Both the position numbers and the translations under genes were made by a program. DNA of 64,000 nucleotides from an uncultured Chloroflexia bacterium (GTDB lineage: Bacteria > Chloroflexota > Anaerolineae > Anaerolineales > UBA4823): positions 466,850 through 530,849 of the forward strand of contig CAWBUW010000002.1 of the NCBI GenBank assembly GCA_963792075.1. The letters are read 5' to 3'. The notes below the pieces were generated by a model. The model was not told the origin of the DNA, did not search any database, and saw nothing but the letters and a program-made list of their open reading frames with translations. This document shows, in pieces, positions 74-61,806 of the stretch (position 1 is its first letter; the number at the start of each line of letters is the position of its first letter).

Positions 74-1117
74 ATGTTCCCACGCCCTCCCCCTACCCCT
101 ATACCCACACCCATTCCGCGCAAAGGACAACTTGATCTTTCTCAAGCAATCACCGCCATCGCCGCCCCCGGAGCGCCGGAATATACCTGGGAGAACGCTG
201 CGCCTGTTTTGCTGGGCGTGCTGCTGCAATACCAGAATGTGACCGTGGATGCCTCGAGCCTGGCTGCCAAACTGCGCCCGAACCCGCTCGACGCAGCCGT
301 ATTTCCATATGAGATCGAGGATTACATTTTCAATCAAACCTCGTTGCAAGCGCTTTATCGCTTTGGCGGGGATATCGAGATCTTGCGCCGCATGGTCGAT
401 GCTGGACTGCCGGTGCTGCTGCAAAAGACCTATACCGGCACGGATGTGGCTGGCTGGGCGGCTGAATATGCCCTGGTAGTAGGTTTCGATGATTTCGAGC
501 AGCGCCTCGAGCTGATCGTGCTCCGTGAAGGCAGCATGCGGTCAGAACAAATCCTCTATGAGGATTTCATGCCGGCCTGGCTGCCTTTTGGCTACGCTTA
601 TTTTGCCATTCTTCCAACGGGGCGCTCGGGGGACCTGGCCCGAATCCTGGGGGAAAATTTCTCAGATACCCGGAATTACGCTGTCGCGATGGAAATTATC
701 GATATCGGATTGCAGAGAAATCTTGTGCAAACTTATTGGAGTTATTTTGCAGGAGCTACGCTCCTGACATACCAGGGAGAATACCAGCGTGCCGCTCTGC
801 TCTATGATGATGCTTTTTTCTTGTCCTATAGAATGCCGGAAGAGCAGCGCCCCTGGCGCGCACTGTGGTACAACTCGCGCCCTTATTGGGCATATTATTA
901 TACCGGTGATTTCGAACGAGTGATTACCCTGGCAGATGAAACGCTCACAAACGGTGGCAACCGTGGCCTGGAAGAGAGCCTGTACTGGCGCGCCATGGCG
1001 CGGAATGTATTGGGAAATCTTACGGGTGCGCTGGCGGATGTACAGGCCGCGCTGCAGGTACACCCGCAGTTTGGACCAGGCCTGTACCTGTTGGAACAGC
1101 TCAGCACAGCGCCATAA
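74..1117 (+). CDS. hypothetical protein with Pro/Thr-rich N-terminus and W/Y-rich helical-repeat (TPR-like) C-terminal half
   Basis: 347-aa ORF. A different frame is open from the window start to about 135, so the gene may begin upstream and change frame in the C-runs at 85-100. Confidence 0.5.
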   Translation: MFPRPPPTPIPTPIPRKGQLDLSQAITAIAAPGAPEYTWENAAPVLLGVLLQYQNVTVDASSLAAKLRPNPLDAAVFPYEIEDYIFNQTSLQALYRFGGDIEILRRMVDAGLPVLLQKTYTGTDVAGWAAEYALVVGFDDFEQRLELIVLREGSMRSEQILYEDFMPAWLPFGYAYFAILPTGRSGDLARILGENFSDTRNYAVAMEIIDIGLQRNLVQTYWSYFAGATLLTYQGEYQRAALLYDDAFFLSYRMPEEQRPWRALWYNSRPYWAYYYTGDFERVITLADETLTNGGNRGLEESLYWRAMARNVLGNLTGALADVQAALQVHPQFGPGLYLLEQLSTAP

Positions 1118-4617: not shown

Positions 4618-4660
4618 TTGGTAGAGTGTGCGGCAGTGAAACTGCTGCACACTCTACCAA
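4618..4660 (+). repeat. 19-bp hairpin, TTGGTAG-GTGTG type
   Basis: TTGGTAGAGTGTGCGGCAG tgaaa CTGCTGCACACTCTACCAA (one G-T). Starts 2 nt after the E2 stop. Its outer stem matches that of the 1294-1338 hairpin. Confidence 0.9.
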
Positions 4661-6132: not shown

Positions 6133-6954
6133 TTATCGCACAAAGGCTACCCCGAGCGCGATCAGGCCAGCGATGGCGCAGTAGATGGCGAAACCGGTCA
6201 GCGAGCGGCGGGCCAGGTAACCCAACAACCAGCGGATGGAGAGATAACCGGTGACCGCGGCGGTGATAAAACCGGTCGCTACCGGCAGCACCATGCTGGA
6301 CAGGTTGGGAAGGTTAAATAAATCCAGCAGTGCCAGCAGACCGGCGGCTAACATCACCGGCACAGACATTAAAAAGGAAAAGCGAGCTGCGGAAGGACGA
6401 TCCAGGTGACGCAGCATGCCGCCGGTGATTGTCGCGCCAGAGCGTGAAATGCCAGGAAAGATCGCCAGTGCCTGGGCAATCCCCATCCAGAGTGCGTCCA
6501 ACCAGGTGAGCGTTTCAAGCGGGCGGCTGCGCTTGCCGATGCGCTCTGCAGCCAGAAGCAGCCCGGCGGTGACCAGCAGGAAAATGGCGGTAGCTACCGG
6601 GCTGGCGAAAGCTGCCTCGACCAGATCTTTGATCAGCAGACCCAGGATCCCGGCTGGGAGGGTCGCCAGGATCAAATACCAGCCCATGCGGGCATTGGGG
6701 TCAGCAAAAGGCTGGCGGCGGAGCAGACCGAGCAGGAAGGCGCGCCCAATGGCCCACAGGTCTTTCCAGAAGTACAGGATCACGGCTACCAGCGTGCCAT
6801 CCTGTACCAATACGTTGAAAATGAAAGCTTCATTGGCAGGGATCTTCCAACCGAAGAGAAAAGGCACCAGAACCAGGTGGGCGGAGGAGGAGATGGGCAG
6901 GAATTCGGTCAGGCCCTGTACAATACCGAGCAGAAAAGATTGTAGGAAGGTCAT
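6133..6954 (-). CDS. uppP: undecaprenyl-diphosphatase
   Basis: 273-aa polytopic BacA/UppP-like protein (LPISSSAHL and GISRSG motifs). Confidence 0.9.
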   Translation of the reverse strand: MTFLQSFLLGIVQGLTEFLPISSSAHLVLVPFLFGWKIPANEAFIFNVLVQDGTLVAVILYFWKDLWAIGRAFLLGLLRRQPFADPNARMGWYLILATLPAGILGLLIKDLVEAAFASPVATAIFLLVTAGLLLAAERIGKRSRPLETLTWLDALWMGIAQALAIFPGISRSGATITGGMLRHLDRPSAARFSFLMSVPVMLAAGLLALLDLFNLPNLSSMVLPVATGFITAAVTGYLSIRWLLGYLARRSLTGFAIYCAIAGLIALGVAFVR

Positions 6955-6969
6955 ATTATTATCGCCTGT

Positions 6970-8106
6970 TTATAGATCTTGAACGGTGGCAGCCTGGCGC
7001 TGTGCGAAGAAAGCCGCCGCGTATAGGTCGAGTGTGCCATCCAACACAGCCTGGCGCAGCTCGCGCGCGATCTGCAACAGCGTGTGCAGGTTGTGGATGG
7101 AGAGCAGCGTAGCCGAAAGCATCTCTTTGGCTGCGATCAGGTGGCGCAGGTATGCCCGAGAAAAATGTTGGCAGGTGTAGCAGGTGCAGGCAGAGTCAAT
7201 CGGCTGGGGATCCTGCGCATAGGCGGCATTGACTAAGTTGATCCGCCCGGTGCGCGTCATCGCCGCGTTATGGCGTGCCAGCCGGGTGGGCAGCACACAA
7301 TCGAAGATGTCCACGCCGCGCAGCACACCCTGCACCAGGTCTTCAGGGGTACCCACTCCCATCAAGTAGCGTGGGCGGTCTTCTGGCAGAATCCGATCCA
7401 CCAACTCCAGCGTGGCATACATTTCTTCTTTTGACTCGCCCACCGACAGCCCGCCAATGGCGCTGCCCGGCAAGTTTTGTGCTGCCACGAACTCGGCCGA
7501 GCGCTGGCGCAGGTCGGGGAAGATACCGCCTTGTACGATGCCAAAGAGCGCCTGGTCGGAACTTTGTTTGGCGCGCTGGCAGCGTTCGAGCCAGGCGTGG
7601 GTGCGCAGCATGGCGCGTTCGGAGTACACCCGGTCGAGGGGCGAGGCGCACTCATCGAAGGCCATGATGATATCTGCCCCCAGGTTCTCCTGGATGGCGA
7701 TGGCTTTTTCAGGCGTAAAGCGGTGCAGCGAGCCATCCGTGTGGCTTTTAAAAGTCACGCCATCCTCATCAATTTTGCGCGCATCCGCCAGCGAAAAAAC
7801 CTGGAAGCCGCCCGAATCGGTCAGCATGGGCCGGTCCCATTGCATAAAGCGGTGCAGACCGCCCATTTCAGCTACCAGCTCATCGCCGGGACGCAAATAG
7901 AGATGGTATGTATTCGATAGGACCAGCGTGGCGCCCAACTCGTGCAGTTGGGCGGGGGTGATCGATTTCACGGTAGCCTGGGTGCCGACCGGTGCGAAAA
8001 CGGGGGTGGGCAGCGGTCCGTGCGGTGTATGGAACACGCCCGCACGGGCTCGCCCCTGGCGGGCATGCAGTTCGAAGGAAAAAGGAGGTAAATTACTTAT
8101 ACTCAT
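6970..8106 (-). CDS. tgt: queuine tRNA-ribosyltransferase
   Basis: 378 aa with LTDSGGFQV and a C-terminal CxCxxC zinc motif. Confidence 0.93.
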   Translation of the reverse strand: MSISNLPPFSFELHARQGRARAGVFHTPHGPLPTPVFAPVGTQATVKSITPAQLHELGATLVLSNTYHLYLRPGDELVAEMGGLHRFMQWDRPMLTDSGGFQVFSLADARKIDEDGVTFKSHTDGSLHRFTPEKAIAIQENLGADIIMAFDECASPLDRVYSERAMLRTHAWLERCQRAKQSSDQALFGIVQGGIFPDLRQRSAEFVAAQNLPGSAIGGLSVGESKEEMYATLELVDRILPEDRPRYLMGVGTPEDLVQGVLRGVDIFDCVLPTRLARHNAAMTRTGRINLVNAAYAQDPQPIDSACTCYTCQHFSRAYLRHLIAAKEMLSATLLSIHNLHTLLQIARELRQAVLDGTLDLYAAAFFAQRQAATVQDL

Positions 8107-8120: not shown

Positions 8121-8156
8121 CCTTTGGAGGGGGATATTGGGTTGTGTATGTGTATC

Positions 8157-8265
8157 GGTTCATTGGGAGTTGCCGTAACAAAGGGCAATTGTGGGGGTAT
8201 TTTGCGGGCTTTGCCCGCAAAATACCCCCACAAAACCGCCCTATCATGGCGATTCCCAGAGAGCC
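8157..8265 (+). mobile_element. MITE-like palindromic element, family 1, copy A (109 bp)
   Basis: Termini GGTTCATTGGGAGTTGCCGT ... ATGGCGATTCCCAGAGAGCC. Flanked by identical TGTGTATC at 8149-8156 and 8266-8273. Nested rod-like hairpin. Confidence 0.7.
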
Positions 8266-8424
8266 TGTGTATCCATTATCAATCCATGGGGTTTCTATTG
8301 AAAGGAATTGGCCTACAATTAAGAGGGCCGATCCATATTTCACATTTGAGAAGGCCTTCAAAATTCAGCCAAACGGCTGCGGGGTCGAGAAGGCCATAAT
8401 TTCTTTTTTTCGACGGAGGAAAAC

Positions 8425-8712: not shown

Positions 8713-8803
8713 GGGAGCACTCAAAAGTTGTTGTAAAAGGGGGTTGTGTGCGGGCGGCGTAAGCCGTCCGCACACAACCCCCTAACAACCTTTTAGTGCA
8801 TCC
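8713..8803 (+). mobile_element. MITE-like palindromic element, family 2 (91 bp)
   Basis: Termini GGGAGCACTCAAAAG / CTTTTAGTGCATCC. 20-bp core stem at 8739-8782. Flanked by GTTTTAGT at 8705-8712 and 8804-8811. Confidence 0.6.
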
Positions 8804-13238: not shown

Positions 13239-13296
13239 ATGCACACCTGTGATGTTGCTGCCGCGCACCAACATCACAGGTGTGCATTTATTTTTA
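13239..13296. terminator. bidirectional intrinsic terminator between convergent genes
   Basis: 19-bp perfect stem ATGCACACCTGTGATGTTG/CAACATCACAGGTGTGCAT, with TTATTTTTAAT downstream and an A-rich tract upstream. Confidence 0.7.
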
Positions 13297-21977: not shown

Positions 21978-22118
21978 GGTTCATTAGGAGTTGCCGTGCA
22001 GAGCTTGCTTAATCGAAAGCCCTGCGTTCCACACCCCTCCCCCCAACTTTAAGAAAACCCTGAGTTGCCGTGACGAAGGGCTATATATGCCCTCTTCCAC
22101 GGCAATTCCTGGAGAGTC
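21978..22118 (+). mobile_element. family 1 element, 141-bp variant (copy C)
   Basis: Starts GGTTCATTAGGAGTTGCCGTG and ends CACGGCAATTCCTGGAGAGTC. The interior differs from copies A/B and contains CCCCTCCCCCC. No clear flanking duplication. Confidence 0.55.
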
Positions 22119-22139
22119 TCGTAAAAGCTGCGATTTAGG

Positions 22140-23036
22140 TTAAATCATTTTTATGATGATGCCGGCCAATACGAGAAGAATGAACGTGCTTACCGAGATC
22201 GCAAGTGCGATCATTTGGTGGCGAGGGAGCAGGCCAAGGAATGCTATGGGCCATGAATAGTATCCCATATACGGCGAAAAGAAAGGCCCTCCGAGTATAG
22301 CGCCTTGGCTCTGCCGTTTAACCACCGACCAAACCAGCAAAGGCAAGCCCACTAGTATCGAATAGGGCCAAAACGACAGATTCCATCCAGGAGGATCGTC
22401 TAGGAGTTTGCCGTACTGAAAGAAATAAGGTCCGTAAATTATAGTGGTGGCGAGGAAAAGCAGTGTAACTGGTAAGAAGGTGCTGATGATTCGGCGCATT
22501 CCACCTTCGCGATAAGCCTCAACTAGCCAATAGACAATCAGTCCAATTCCGAGTTGCGGCTTGGTCAGGGAGAAGAAAAGACCGATCTGGGGAGGGAGTA
22601 CATAGCCAATGGCAACCAGCCAGTCGATATTAGGGTTGAGGATATTATGGAATAGGTAGAGAGGGTTTGCTACCATCAATGCTGCCACCAGTAGCGAAGC
22701 GCCCATTTTTTTTGCTACGAGAAAATATGTTACCACAGCTACTGAAGCCAGTATGGCCCGCCCGACATCTGCTGGAAGAAATGCAATCGTAACGAGCGGG
22801 AGTAATGACCAGGGCACCCAGTGGCAGTTTTCTAGATCGTTAGGATTCTTTCCGGTGATTAAATACTGAGCACCGGGTCGGAAACAATTATCCCAATCAT
22901 TGGAGAACTTTTGAGTTTTTCCAAGGTAATATGCCAGTGCAAAAACACAAATGCCCAAGATGATTGTAGGGATAATGTTCTTGTATGACTTGATCGTCTT
23001 CAAAGCAGGGGGTTGATGAATAATAATTTCTGTCAT
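22140..23036 (-). CDS. polytopic membrane protein, GT-C-like putative glycosyltransferase
   Basis: 298 aa with about 8 TM helices. AT-richer than its surroundings. Divergent from a GT2 gene. Confidence 0.6.
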   Translation of the reverse strand: MTEIIIHQPPALKTIKSYKNIIPTIILGICVFALAYYLGKTQKFSNDWDNCFRPGAQYLITGKNPNDLENCHWVPWSLLPLVTIAFLPADVGRAILASVAVVTYFLVAKKMGASLLVAALMVANPLYLFHNILNPNIDWLVAIGYVLPPQIGLFFSLTKPQLGIGLIVYWLVEAYREGGMRRIISTFLPVTLLFLATTIIYGPYFFQYGKLLDDPPGWNLSFWPYSILVGLPLLVWSVVKRQSQGAILGGPFFSPYMGYYSWPIAFLGLLPRHQMIALAISVSTFILLVLAGIIIKMI

Positions 23037-23040
23037 AAAA

Positions 23041-23083
23041 CATCTAATGGGAACTGCCCCATCACGGCAACTCCCAATGAACC
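23041..23083 (-). mobile_element. family 1 element, 43-bp ends-only derivative (copy D)
   Basis: The minus strand reads GGTTCATTGGGAGTTGCCGTGATGGGGCAGTTCCCATTAGATG. Lies 4 nt upstream of the start codon at 23036. Confidence 0.5.
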
Positions 23084-28503: not shown

Positions 28504-29559
28504 ATGACAGTCAAAGTTGGTATCAATGGTTTCGGCCGCATTGGCCGCCAGGTGCTCAAAGCAATGCGAGATTTCCATGGCAGCGAATTGGAAATTGTCG
28601 CGTTCAATGACGTGGGTGACCTGCCCACTATGGCGCACCTGCTGAAATACGACTCGAACTATGGGCGTTTCAACGGCACGGTAGAAGTTGCTGCGGACGC
28701 TCTGGTCGTAGATGGTAAGCCGATCAAGGCTTTCAAGGAAACAGACCCGTCCAAGATTCCTTGGGGAGACCTGGGCGTCTCGATCGTGATCGAGTCCACC
28801 GGCATCTTTACCATCAAGAAAGATGGCGTCAACAAAAAGGGCAAAGTCGTCCTGGGGGCCGAGAACCACATCACCAAGGGCGGCGCGAAGAAAGTGATCA
28901 TTTCCGCCCCTGCAGAGGGTGAGGACCTGACGATCGTACTCGGTGTCAATGATGATAAATATGATCCTGCCAGGCATCACGTTGTGTCCAATGCCTCCTG
29001 CACCACCAACGGCCTCGCCCCGGCAGCCAAAGTTGTCAACGACAGCTTTGGCATCGTGCGCGGCATGATGGTGACCGTGCATGCGTACACGAACGATCAG
29101 AAGATCCTGGACCTGCCGCATTCTGATCTGCGCCGCGCCCGCGCCGCGGCGATGAGCATCATCCCCACCACCACCGGCGCTGCGAAAGCAGTCAAGCTGG
29201 TGATTCCCGATCTGGCCGGCAAGCTGGATGGGTACGCGCTGCGCGTCCCTACCTCGACCGTGTCGGTGATCGACCTGACCGTTGAGATGGCTAAAGCCAC
29301 CACCACCGAAGCGCTGCGCCAGGCATTCCGCGATGCTGCGGCTGGCCCGATGAAGGGCATCCTGCAGGCAGTCGATGAGCCCCTGGTCAGCATCGACTTC
29401 AAGGGTGACCCGCACTCCTCCTCGGTGGACATGGGCTTCACCACTGTCCTGGGCAAGGAAGCCGGCACCATGGCCAAGATCGTGGCCTGGTACGACAACG
29501 AGTGGGGCTACTCCGTTCGCACCGCTGACCTGGCCGCCCTCATGGCCAAGTCCCTCTAG
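28504..29559 (+). CDS. gap: glyceraldehyde-3-phosphate dehydrogenase
   Basis: INGFGRIGR and SNASCTTN motifs. AGGAGG before the ATG. Confidence 0.95.
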
Positions 29560-29593
29560 ACTACTTACACGATCTGCGCTGCTTGATTCTTTC

Positions 29594-29702
29594 GGTTTAT
29601 TGGGAGTTGCCGTGGCAGCGGGCAAATGTGGGGATGTTTTGCGGGCAAAGCCCGCAAAACATCCCCACAGAACCGCTCCATTACGGCGATTCCAAGAGAG
29701 TT
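29594..29702 (+). mobile_element. family 1 element, copy B (109 bp)
   Basis: Same length and termini as copy A. Flanks are ATTCTTTC and ATTTTTTC. Lies in the gap-pgk spacer. Confidence 0.7.
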
Positions 29703-29741
29703 ATTTTTTCCGAGTTGAGCAGCGCAGATTTTGGAGGCTCC

Positions 29742-30917
29742 ATGTTCAACAAAAAGACTATTCGTGATATCAATCCCGCGGGGAAGCGCATCCTGGTGCG
29801 CGTAGATTACAACGTGCCCATCAAAGACGGCAAAGTGAGCGACGATACACGTATCCGCGCGGCCATGCCCACGTTGAACTACCTGCTGGAAAAGGGTGCG
29901 GCCCTGATCCTGTGCTCACACCTGGGCCGGCCCAAAGGCGGACCGGATCCCAAGTATTCCCTCAAGCCGGTGGCAGATTACCTCAGCGGTTTGCTGGGCA
30001 AGCCGGTGGCCTTCGCCGAGGACTGCATTGGCCCGGTCGCTGAAGCGGCTGCCAAGGCGCTCAAGTCTGGCGATGTGCTGCTGCTCGAAAATACCCGCTT
30101 CCACCCGGAAGAGGAGAAGAACAACGAGGATATGGCCAAGCAGTTGGCCGGGTTGGCAGACCTGTACGTCAACGACGCTTTTGGATCGGCACACCGCGCC
30201 CATGCTTCGACAGAGGGCGTGGCGCATTTCCTGCCTGCTGTAGCTGGTCTGCTCATGGAAGAAGAAATCCGCTACCTGGGCCAGGCGATTGCCAACCCCA
30301 AGCGGCCGTTCATCGCCATCCTGGGCGGCGCTAAGATCAGTGATAAAATCGGCGTGATCAAGAACTTGCTGACCAAGGCCGACAAGGTGCTGATTGGCGG
30401 CGGCATGGCGAACACCTTCTTCAAGGCGCAGGGCATCTCCATGGCCAACTCGCTGGTAGAGGCGGAAGCGCTGGAAACGGCAAAGGAGATCCTCAAAGAT
30501 GCCGGCTCCAAGCTGCAGCTACCCGTCGACATGGTGATCGCAGATAAGTTCGAGGCAGAAGCCGCGAGCAAGACCGTGCCCGTAGGCCCGGTGCCGGATG
30601 GCTGGCGCATCCTCGACGTGGGTCCCGCAACAGTGACTGCCTTTGGCAAGGCGCTGAAGGGGGCAGGCACGGTGGTGTGGAACGGCCCGATGGGCGTGTT
30701 CGAGTTCCCCCGCTTTGCCCAGGGCACCTTCGGGGTGGCTAAAGCTGTGGCAGAATGCGGCGCGGTTTCGATCATCGGCGGCGGCGATTCGGTTGCCGCA
30801 GTTGCGCAAGCTGGCCTGGAGAAGCAGATCACGCACATTTCCACGGGCGGCGGCGCTTCCCTGGAAATGCTCGAAGGCCTGGTGCTGCCCGGCCTGGCTG
30901 CGCTGCGAGATAAATAG
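29742..30917 (+). CDS. pgk: phosphoglycerate kinase
   Basis: [10 protein letters not shown]...RVDYNVP. GGAGG lies 4 nt before the ATG. The ORF-track start at 29583 reads through the repeat. Confidence 0.95.
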
Positions 30918-31000: not shown

Positions 31001-31780
31001 ATGCGACTACCTTTTGTAGCTGGAAACTGGAAAATGTATAAGACGATTGCCGAAACCCGGCACCTCGTCTCTGAATTGGTCCCCGGATTGCAGGCCGTGC
31101 AGGGTGTGGAAAAAGTGATTTGCCCGCCCTTTACCGTCCTGCTGGCTGCTTCTGCGCTATTGGAAGGGACGGATATTGGCCTGGGGGCGCAGAATATGCA
31201 TTGGGAAGCGCAGGGGGCGTTCACGGGTGAGATTTCTCCGCCCATGGTCGCCGAAATCTGCCGCTACGTGATCCTGGGTCATTCTGAACGGCGCACATAC
31301 TTTGGCGAAACAGACGAGACTGTCAATATGAAAGCGCGGGCTGCATTGAAACACGGCCTGCTGCCCATCGTTTGTGTGGGCGAGACGCTGACCGAAAACG
31401 AAGCCGGTCGCACGGCAGATGTCGTTTCACGCCAAATGCGCGATGGCCTGGCCGGCCTGGCGTTCCCTACTGAAGACGTGGCGGCAACGCCCCTGGTGAT
31501 CGCTTATGAGCCGGTGTGGGCAATTGGCACCGGGCGGGCAGCGACTGCCGAGGGCGCCAATGCCGTTGTGGCGGATGTGATCCGTTCCGTGTTGGCCGAA
31601 CGTTTTGGCGCCTCGATCGCCCAGGCGGTGCGTGTGCTGTACGGCGGCTCGGTGAAAGCGGATAACGCCGCGGAGTTCTTTGCCCAGCCGGATATCGATG
31701 GGGCGTTGGTGGGCGGCGCCAGCCTGAAAGCTGGCGAGTTCATCCGCATCACCCAGGCTGCTGCCAACCCTCACGCTTGA
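31001..31780 (+). CDS. tpiA: triose-phosphate isomerase
   Basis: AGNWKM and AYEPVWAIGTG motifs. Confidence 0.95.
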   Translation: MRLPFVAGNWKMYKTIAETRHLVSELVPGLQAVQGVEKVICPPFTVLLAASALLEGTDIGLGAQNMHWEAQGAFTGEISPPMVAEICRYVILGHSERRTYFGETDETVNMKARAALKHGLLPIVCVGETLTENEAGRTADVVSRQMRDGLAGLAFPTEDVAATPLVIAYEPVWAIGTGRAATAEGANAVVADVIRSVLAERFGASIAQAVRVLYGGSVKADNAAEFFAQPDIDGALVGGASLKAGEFIRITQAAANPHA

Positions 31781-56319: not shown

Positions 56320-56354
56320 GCGCCCAAGATATGGGAGTCCTATATCTTGGGCGC
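56320..56354 (+). repeat. 13-bp perfect hairpin
   Basis: GCGCCCAAGATAT ... ATATCTTGGGCGC with a 9-nt loop. Confidence 0.85.
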
Positions 56355-56369
56355 TTGAGCAGGATGATT

Positions 56370-56415
56370 GGGATCAATTTTGCGGTGAATCCGCAAAATT
56401 GATCCCTTTTTATTT
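56370..56415 (+). terminator. intrinsic terminator at a convergent junction
   Basis: 16-bp perfect stem GGGATCAATTTTGCGG/CCGCAAAATTGATCCC, then TTTTTATTT. Confidence 0.7.
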
Positions 56416-56735: not shown

Positions 56736-56782
56736 TTTGGGGTTTATTTTGGGCGGCGGAGCCGCCCAAAATAAACCCCAAA
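56736..56782 (+). repeat. 22-bp perfect hairpin filling an intercistronic gap
   Basis: TTTGGGGTTTATTTTGGGCGGC gga GCCGCCCAAAATAAACCCCAAA. Confidence 0.9.
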
Positions 56783-58662: not shown

Positions 58663-58667
58663 GAGGT

Positions 58668-58710
58668 GGGGTGTTCAAAGGGACGGCTTTGCCGCCCCTT
58701 TGAACACCCC
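58668..58710 (+). repeat. 20-bp hairpin (one mismatch)
   Basis: GGGGTGTTCAAAGGGACGGC ttt GCCGCCCCTTTGAACACCCC. Confidence 0.85.
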
Positions 58711-58733
58711 AAAATATTATCCGAGGGCATCTT

Positions 58734-60579: not shown

Positions 60580-60618
60580 AGGGTTATGTGTTTGTGCACA
60601 GCACAAACACATAACCCT
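60580..60618 (+). repeat. 18-bp perfect hairpin filling an intercistronic gap
   Basis: AGGGTTATGTGTTTGTGC aca GCACAAACACATAACCCT. Lies 2 nt after the upstream stop and 6 nt before the next SD (minus-strand sense). Confidence 0.9.
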
Positions 60619-61614: not shown

Positions 61615-61806
61615 ATCTTTTCCTTTCCCCCTCCCCCCTTGGGGGAGGGCAGGTTGCGAAGCAACCGGGGTGAGGGAGAATAGACGTCCCCTCACCCCTA
61701 CCCTCTCCCCAGGCTGCGCAGCAGCCGTTGGGCGATGGGCAGGATCTTTACCCCTCCCCCGTTGGGGGAGGGCAGGTTGCGGAGCAACCGTGGGGTGATG
61801 GAGGAG
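61615..61806 (+). repeat. two ~62-nt direct copies of a GC-rich hairpin unit plus linker hairpins
   Basis: The units at 61615-61678 and 61743-61806 each contain CCCTCCCCC-N3-GGGGGAGGG, GGTTGC-N3-GCAACC and GGGGTGA.GGAG. Confidence 0.85.

Follow-up and report, generated by a model that had tools for sequence, protein, structure and literature searches.

The gap-pgk spacer described here belongs to a member of the Anaerolineae (Chloroflexota) and is occupied for most of its length by one nested hairpin with a short mobile element inside it. The locus raises the question of whether the element made the hairpin or entered one that already existed, and whether the way in which pgk is expressed has been altered as a result. 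The DNA analysed is a stretch of 64,000 nucleotides, referred to as the window. The likely reading is that of a tolerated passenger, in which a decayed ISL3-derived MITE would sit at the tip of an older stem-loop and would leave the base of the stem and the accessibility of the pgk Shine-Dalgarno (SD) sequence unchanged.

Layout of the gap-pgk spacer

The features of the locus, together with related features elsewhere in the window, are listed in Table 1.

Table 1. Coordinates of the gap-pgk locus, the inserted element, and related features (window positions unless a relative is named).
Feature	Position	Strand	Detail
gap (glyceraldehyde-3-phosphate dehydrogenase, 351 aa)	28504..29559	+	Pfam Gp_dh_N E 1e-60, Gp_dh_C E 4e-36
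gap stop codon TAG	29557-29559	+	
Outer stem 5' arm (probably pre-existing)	29571..29589	+	exact 12-nt core 29572-29583; pair probabilities 0.74-1.0
Left target-site duplication ATTCTTTC	29586..29593	.	spans stem top and original loop
ISL3-derived MITE, 109 bp	29594..29702	+	shares termini with parent IS in L024
MITE left TIR	29594-29614		
MITE inner hairpin, perfect 20 bp	29627-29669		
MITE right TIR, decayed	29682-29702		terminal TT, not CC
Right target-site duplication ATTTTTTC	29703..29710	.	7/8 identical to left copy
Outer stem 3' arm (probably pre-existing)	29712..29730	+	exact 12-nt core 29718-29729
pgk Shine-Dalgarno GGAGG	29733..29737	+	read from sequence
pgk (phosphoglycerate kinase, 391 aa)	29742..30917	+	Pfam PGK, E 2e-162; ATG at 29742
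tpiA (triosephosphate isomerase, 259 aa)	31001..31780	+	Pfam TIM, E 2e-91
Second complete MITE copy, same subfamily	8157..8265	+	81-83% identical to gap-pgk copy; perfect 8-bp TSD TGTGTATC (8149-8156, 8266-8273)
Degenerate composite copy, 141 nt	21978..22118	+	left end and minimal right half around an unrelated insert; TSD not recognisable
Solo left end of element	23063..23083	-	21/21 consensus match; inverted relative to 21978
Stand-alone hairpins	1292-1340, 4618-4660, 8738-8783, 13239-13287, 56320-56354, 56370-56406, 56736-56782, 58667-58711, 60580-60618		
Predicted SD / gap-stop pairings	window 29553-29560 with 29730-29737; L003 74-83 with 163-172; L002 73-80 with 208-215; L005 71-77 with 220-226		

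The spacer between gap and pgk is 182 nucleotides in length, and the rod within it spans 158 of these. The sequence ATCTGCGCTGCT (29572-29583) is the exact reverse complement of AGCAGCGCAGAT (29718-29729). At the RNA level the outer stem is longer, at 19 bp (29571-29589 with 29712-29730), with 12 exact pairs, three G·U pairs, and three Watson-Crick pairs. It begins 11 nucleotides past the gap stop codon and ends 2-3 nucleotides short of the pgk SD. Only four U residues (UUUU) follow the stem, and then GGAGG. The preliminary description of this locus had given the same repeat coordinates, the same spacer and rod lengths, and a distance of 3 nucleotides to GGAGG, and these hold. The single nested hairpin it proposed is confirmed by RNA folding of positions 29555-29750, which form one rod of -103.5 kcal/mol (z = -11; shuffle mean -56.0 kcal/mol, with 0 of 200 shuffles as stable).

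Exact inverted repeats of at least 12 nucleotides, with arms up to 200 nucleotides apart, were listed for the 64-kb window. Among the 25 longest of the 32 pairs, the outer repeat is the sole widely separated one, and the others are compact hairpins or palindromes.

The outer hairpin does not have the combination of a GC-rich stem, a 3-8-nucleotide loop, and at least 5 U residues in the 8 positions immediately 3' that defines a canonical intrinsic terminator. A + strand terminator scan of the spacer gave zero calls and no sigma-70-like promoter was called in it, both by consensus rules that may not apply to Chloroflexota. Internal promoters and canonical terminators were likewise not called in the spacers of three relatives. 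No Rfam family matched anywhere in the window at gathering level, and a permissive Rfam scan of the spacer returned only sub-threshold matches to generic hairpins (miRNA-precursor).

The inserted element and its family

The insert, named a family 1 element in the preliminary description, is a MITE derived from an ISL3-family IS of Anaerolineae, and the mobile nature proposed for it is borne out by its target-site duplication (TSD). The parent IS was identified in a related Anaerolineales MAG (L024, positions 6279-7669). This IS is 1391 bp long, its termini are identical to those of the MITE, and the TSD GCAATTCG is present on both sides. Its transposase (6384-7646, 420 aa) matches PF01610 DDE_Tnp_ISL3 with an E-value of 1.4e-64 and also the ISL3 zinc ribbon, and on the NCBIfam equivalog for ISL3, NF033550, it scores 293 bits where the cutoff is 180. 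Within the window no parent IS was seen; the single ISL3-type DDE transposase is that of the parent IS in the related MAG.

The TIRs are imperfect and approximately 21 bp long (GGTTCATTGGGAGTTGCCGTG ... CACGGCGATTCCCAGAGAGCC), and the consensus ends agree at 16 of 21 positions. The ISL3 pattern of imperfect TIRs of about 15-40 bp that start with GG, in elements of about 1.2-2 kb, is found here. Folded alone, the MITE reaches -69.6 kcal/mol and forms a perfect 20-bp stem and an 11-bp TIR stem.

The family was searched for by scanning the 20-nucleotide left end against species-representative genomes and JGI metagenomes. True left-end matches come almost exclusively from Anaerolineae and other Chloroflexota. 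The complete copies collected number 97, with a perfect 8-bp TSD in 72 and a 7/8 match in 6 more. Most are about 110 nucleotides in length, and approximately 15 are full length at 1.2-1.39 kb (1213-1391 bp). The 8-bp, usually AT-rich TSD that is typical of ISL3 is present in L024 and in the 72 copies, and the target consensus is AT-rich, palindromic, and approximately AAAATTTT. Throughout these Anaerolineae MAGs and metagenomes the family combines conserved termini with variable interiors and 8-bp TSDs, and the termini are near-invariant among 69 unique copies. As expected of MITEs, the short copies are non-coding, numerous, and dispersed, and they carry the TIRs and the TSD length of the autonomous element.

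REP and BIME sequences are short imperfect palindromes without TSDs and are linked to RAYT (IS200/IS605-like) transposases. A palindrome of this type was rejected for the present element, which has 8-bp TSDs and TIRs in common with an ISL3 DDE transposase element.

The gap-pgk copy is the only one of the 69 with a terminal TT in place of CC. Two further bases are found in no other copy, an A at position -9 and a T at left position 5, and the TSD of the gap-pgk copy is imperfect (7/8). Because the private changes fall in near-invariant terminal bases and the duplication has only a 7/8 match, this copy is probably an old, immobile fossil.

We know of no earlier description of this family, and none was found in the literature searched. 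It is apparently undescribed yet widespread in Anaerolineae, and its definition here, through the terminal sequences, the parent IS, and an AT-rich target of 8 bp, aids annotation and explains contig breaks in MAGs of a poorly studied phylum. Contigs often end in or beside the MITE (L006, L015, L020, L026, and many metagenome loci), 19 copies lie at contig edges, and the contig of locus L004 breaks exactly at the palindrome center (its position 1). Since contigs end in this way so often, the family repeatedly causes assemblies of Anaerolineae MAGs to break.

Several copies occur in or with arrays or palindromes of CGCGGAT, CACGGAT, or CACGAAT (L008 at 3304, L057 at 1770 on the minus strand, and the interiors of L021, L023, and L034). 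These arrays may represent a second palindromic repeat family of Anaerolineae with nested insertions.

Elsewhere in the window, inverted left ends of the ISL3 element (21978 on the plus strand, 23083 on the minus strand) bracket the 141-nucleotide degenerate MITE and a membrane ORF. The ORF (22140-23036, minus strand) encodes a multi-pass membrane protein of 298 aa with no Pfam match. The GC content dips to 46-50% between 21500 and 24500, compared with about 60% in the surroundings. The bracketed region 21978-23083 lacks a matching TSD and may be an acquired island, or else an element that has been rearranged or that carries a passenger.

The inner 20-bp stem is perfect in every copy of the subfamily despite sequence differences between them (29627-29669, 8190-8232, and approximately 4285-4327 in L025). 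The two window copies differ at two positions of this stem, and the opposite arm compensates for both; the stem of L025 differs at more positions than those of the window copies do. This pattern, seen in 3-4 distinct copies only, suggests that something preserves the inner palindrome, which could be selection or the templated correction of quasi-palindromes.

The window also contains approximately 10 stand-alone near-perfect hairpins of 16-23 bp, mostly with 3-nucleotide loops and each with a sequence of its own. In many of them the 5' arm is rich in G and T and has ...GCGGC or ...GGGC at its end. The hairpins all fall in AT-rich intergenic DNA. Several are 3-20 nucleotides past the 3' ends of genes, and one separates two convergent genes. 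Their appearance is that of gene-end or terminator hairpins of this genome, with no U-tract, and they are similar to the inner hairpin of the MITE. A further small repeat family is represented by two direct copies of a 48-nucleotide unit (61623-61670 and 61746-61793) that are 92% identical and 123 nucleotides apart. Each unit is composed of a hairpin, CCCCTCCCCC-N4-GGGGGAGGG, followed by GGTTGCGAAGCAACC.

The enclosing hairpin and the insertion point

The empty site was reconstructed by removing the element and one target duplication, which gives the junction sequence GCTGCTTGATTCTTTCCGAGTTGAGCAGC. The preliminary description had predicted that such a deletion leaves a simple hairpin with a 12-bp stem and a 17-nucleotide loop. 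A strong hairpin is indeed restored, and its dimensions are different: with G·U pairs counted it has a 19-bp stem and a 5-nucleotide loop, with a free energy of -33.6 kcal/mol (z = -5.6). The 8-bp target straddles the apex of this stem-loop.

The sense strand folds better than the antisense strand because of the G·U pairs, both in the empty construct (-33.6 versus -24.7 kcal/mol) and in the filled one (-103.5 versus -83.6 kcal/mol). A near-identical contig from another sample (L004) contains the element and has 2 differences in 1314 nucleotides. One of them, T>C at 29716, puts a G-C pair in place of a G·U pair in the outer stem. The folding asymmetry and this change together suggest that the outer stem is a structure of the RNA.

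Except at the same site in L004, the outer-arm sequence was found nowhere else in the window or in the more than 150 loci fetched. The repeat flanking the element was placed outside it in the preliminary description, and its uniqueness, along with the absence of such flanks from other family copies, agrees with that placement. The outer stem is independent of the element.

Eight relatives with a Pgk identity of 80-92% were compared (L002, L003, L005, L155-L158, and the truncated L001). The element is absent from the gap-pgk spacer in all eight. Each of these spacers is significantly structured (z from -2.7 to -6.2), and the hairpin sequences are unrelated. In the three closest relatives the hairpin begins 8-14 nucleotides past the gap stop codon, as it does in the window. 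Because relatives and the intergenic DNA of the window also carry strong hairpins, the strong hairpin after gap is a feature of the host with the MITE inside it. The structured hairpins that occupy the same spacer without the element agree with the pre-existing hairpin of the preliminary description. The logic of the TSD and the uniqueness of the outer repeat argue for the order in which the hairpin came first and the MITE second.

No true orthologous empty site was recovered among these loci. The spacer of the nearest element-free relative (L005, 92% Pgk identity) cannot be aligned, and those of L001-L003 are likewise too diverged to serve as an empty site. Exact-protein look-ups with the Pgk and Gap of the window found no further locus.

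The gap-pgk spacer of L157, a relative of approximately 81%, contains a 14-bp stem, CAAGACCCCAAAGG / CCTTTGGGGTCTTG, around a 59-nucleotide interior (1356-1443). Here too a post-gap hairpin may enclose extra sequence, in this case with no relation to the ISL3 MITE.

Targeting of hairpin tips by the MITE family was rejected. The local hairpin enclosing the insertion point was scored at 69 unique sites and at 2172 AT-matched control sites outside long ORFs on the same contigs, and the two sets show no significant difference (Mann-Whitney p = 0.63; p = 0.15 in a pilot with 15 sites). The fractions are equal at every threshold except -20 kcal/mol or below, where 3 of 69 sites compared with 1.1% of controls form a small, non-significant excess. 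A strong flanking inverted repeat is absent in 66 of the 69 copies. No bias of the family toward hairpin tips is seen. Its targets are AT-rich 8-mers, and the proposal in the preliminary description that the hairpin itself was the insertion target was not upheld. Where a GC-rich stem has an AT-rich apex, that apex is just one more such 8-mer.

Predicted consequences for the transcript and comparison with known systems

The effect of the insertion on the RNA was modeled by equilibrium partition-function folding of positions 29480-29820 with and without 29594-29710. The unpaired probability of the SD is 0.035 in the filled and in the empty construct alike. Pair probabilities of the outer stem are also equal, except at the apical closing pair (0.74 filled, 1.0 empty), and the predicted accessibility over 29731-29760 is identical. 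In longer contexts the SD is predicted to be mostly paired, again to the same degree with and without the MITE. The predicted thermodynamics of the stem base and the SD are unchanged by the insert. Because the insertion hit the tip, the stem base, its distances to the gap stop codon and the RBS, the predicted pairing, and the SD accessibility all stay as they were. The end of the stem 3 nucleotides from the RBS is a geometry inherited from the host hairpin and not made by the element. Occlusion of the RBS by the insert, as suggested in the preliminary description, is therefore not borne out, since the 3' arm that abuts the RBS was already in place and the predicted SD accessibility is the same either way. 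The regulatory consequences put forward there find no support in these computations.

In co-transcriptional snapshots the 5' arm is about half unpaired until the 3' arm emerges, at which point the full stem forms. A strong kinetic trap of the 5' arm during transcription of the insert was considered and is not predicted by these snapshots.

From these observations we infer in what order the events took place, what the hairpin does, and that the insertion is neutral. A MITE mobilized in trans by an ISL3 DDE transposase, which would recognize the approximately 21-bp TIRs, insert into AT-rich 8-bp targets, and duplicate them, would have inserted at ATTCTTTC, where an older 19-bp stem-loop between the gap stop codon and the pgk SD has its AT-rich apex. 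That stem-loop would reflect a conserved habit, as strong and unrelated gap-pgk hairpins are present in every relative examined. Its most likely role is to protect the 3' end or to attenuate weakly, and so to set the ratio of gap to pgk-tpiA. The insertion would have been tolerated, would have drifted to fixation in the population, and would later have decayed. The best-supported reading is a tolerated passenger at the tip, the only site in the spacer that would take up 117 extra nucleotides without harm to the functional base of the hairpin. Neutrality is what the equilibrium folding points to. At present the effect is most likely neutral or mild, with a longer and more stable rod that would still be a barrier to exonucleases. 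The rod may add a substrate for double-stranded RNases, and a mild effect at the RNA level is possible, either through this extra double-stranded RNA for RNase III or through a stronger 3' barrier.

A regulatory MITE is an unlikely alternative to the tolerated passenger. The co-transcribed 20-bp inner helix and the paired TIRs would form a long double-stranded RNA, and cleavage by RNase III, or stronger termination or 3'-end protection, would uncouple pgk-tpiA from gap or lower it relative to gap. The stability of the insert alone (-69.6 kcal/mol, with its perfect 20-bp and 11-bp TIR stems) favors this, as does its resemblance to the stand-alone 18-23-bp intergenic hairpins of the genome. In addition, pgk must be read through the structure, as no separate pgk promoter is detectable, and MITEs in transcripts that act through RNase III or RNase E have precedent (PMC10969869). 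However, the pre-existing 19-bp stem already provides a comparable barrier or substrate, and the insert makes no difference to RBS accessibility at equilibrium. The copy shows decay at its ends instead of visible conservation, and a strong block is improbable given that pgk and tpiA are core glycolytic genes.

Less likely again is a coupling clamp, in which the spacer hairpin would juxtapose the gap stop region CCUCUAGA (29553-29560) with the pgk SD UUUUGGAGG (29729-29737) so that the two pair. A terminating gap ribosome would melt this helix and free the pgk RBS, and the MITE would survive because an insertion at the tip spares the clamp. In the 29480-29820 context the SD is predicted to pair, below the long stem, with the gap stop region, made up of the last codon(s) and the stop codon (unpaired probability about 0.04). 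An analogous pairing between the SD and CUCUAA is predicted in the three closest relatives (P = 0.35, 0.98, and 0.68), in which the spacers are unrelated. One pair is compensatory, C-G in the window and L003 and U-A in L002, and L157 has 8 bp of latent complementarity in which an AU insertion on one side is matched by one on the other. The pairing is predicted in 4 of 8 lineages, but it is absent in four relatives of approximately 80%, and in the window it depends on context, with a probability that falls to about one half on a change of 1 nucleotide. The covarying pair is broken in L005. The duplex rank test gives weak results (p = 0.15 for the window and 0.04 when combined, the latter on lineages that are not independent), and both partners are otherwise constrained, one as Leu-stop coding sequence and the other as the SD consensus. 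A broader form of the clamp is more doubtful still. It would be functional and would make the translation of pgk depend on termination at gap across structured spacers of 70-180 nucleotides, the MITE would be kept because the tip alone tolerates 117 extra nucleotides, and the ISL3-MITEs of Anaerolineae would bring with them perfect hairpins of the terminator style, open to grafting onto RNA structures of the host.

It is very improbable that the outer repeat, instead of being an older host hairpin, belongs to a nested or larger mobile element or arose in the insertion event itself: the copies in L008 and L057 do sit inside palindromes of repeated CGCGGAT or CACGAAT, and longer family variants carry internal repeat arrays, but the uniqueness of the outer arms, the general lack of strong inverted repeats around other copies, and the same-place hairpins of relatives without the element all argue against it, as does the position of the TSD inside the outer arms, where it is expected after insertion into a pre-existing loop.

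The tolerated passenger has close counterparts among known elements. A 187-nucleotide ISL3-derived MITE of Microcystis aeruginosa has GGCTCTTCG termini and 8-nucleotide direct repeats (PMC11448079). Like ISL3 IS elements and their MITEs, the Anaerolineae family has a parent DDE ISL3 transposase, imperfect TIRs starting with GG, and 8-bp AT-rich TSDs, and its short, non-coding copies form hairpins and are numerous. The reverse complement of its right end, GGCTCTCTGGG, resembles the ISL3 GGCTCTTCG motif. It differs from ISL3 elements and the Microcystis MITE in its lineage, Anaerolineae (Chloroflexota), and in the sequence of its TIRs and interiors.

The preliminary description considered a mobile hairpin in a core glycolytic operon to be unusual. 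MITEs co-transcribed in operon spacers are well documented, among them Chunjie, Correia (RNase III), and ERIC (RNase E) (PMC10969869). So far as it is summarized in PMC10969869, the operon MITE of 2008 work likewise lies between or within the genes of an operon that is structurally intact. It differs in its parent family, and what sets the gap-pgk copy apart is its position at the apex of an existing intercistronic stem-loop and its decay without sign of recent activity.

The Correia repeats of Neisseria and the ERIC/IRU repeats of enterobacteria are also co-transcribed, palindromic, and MITE-like, and form long hairpins in intergenic or intercistronic RNA. Their hairpins can alter mRNA processing and stability through RNase III or RNase E (PMC10969869). 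They differ in TSD length, and the parent transposase is known for the Anaerolineae MITE. Cleavage, an IHF site, and promoter function belong to the Correia and ERIC repeats, whereas the gap-pgk MITE is known from its sequence and predicted folds. The structural prerequisite for similar effects, a perfect 20-bp helix, is present in the predicted fold.

That intercistronic hairpins stabilize an upstream segment such as gap is a classical idea. In Zymomonas mobilis, the gap-pgk mRNA reportedly undergoes segmental stabilization by an intercistronic stem-loop, and the malE-malF REP of E. coli is said to stabilize the upstream mRNA segment. The host hairpin described here is alike in being strong, in lying within about 15 nucleotides of the stop codon of a highly expressed upstream cistron, and in belonging to a glycolytic gap-pgk unit. 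Unlike those stem-loops it is unique in sequence, with no repeat family and no canonical U-tract, and its role here is putative.

The gap-pgk insertion reveals no new mechanism. It is a clean natural case of a transposon at the apex of a host RNA hairpin with the base undisturbed, in effect a natural 'loop-insertion' experiment, and transcript data on this copy could tell whether the post-gene hairpins of Chloroflexota act via the position of their base or via their overall shape. Set against these known systems, both the gap-pgk MITE and its setting are of familiar kinds, and what is new is the Anaerolineae family to which the element belongs.
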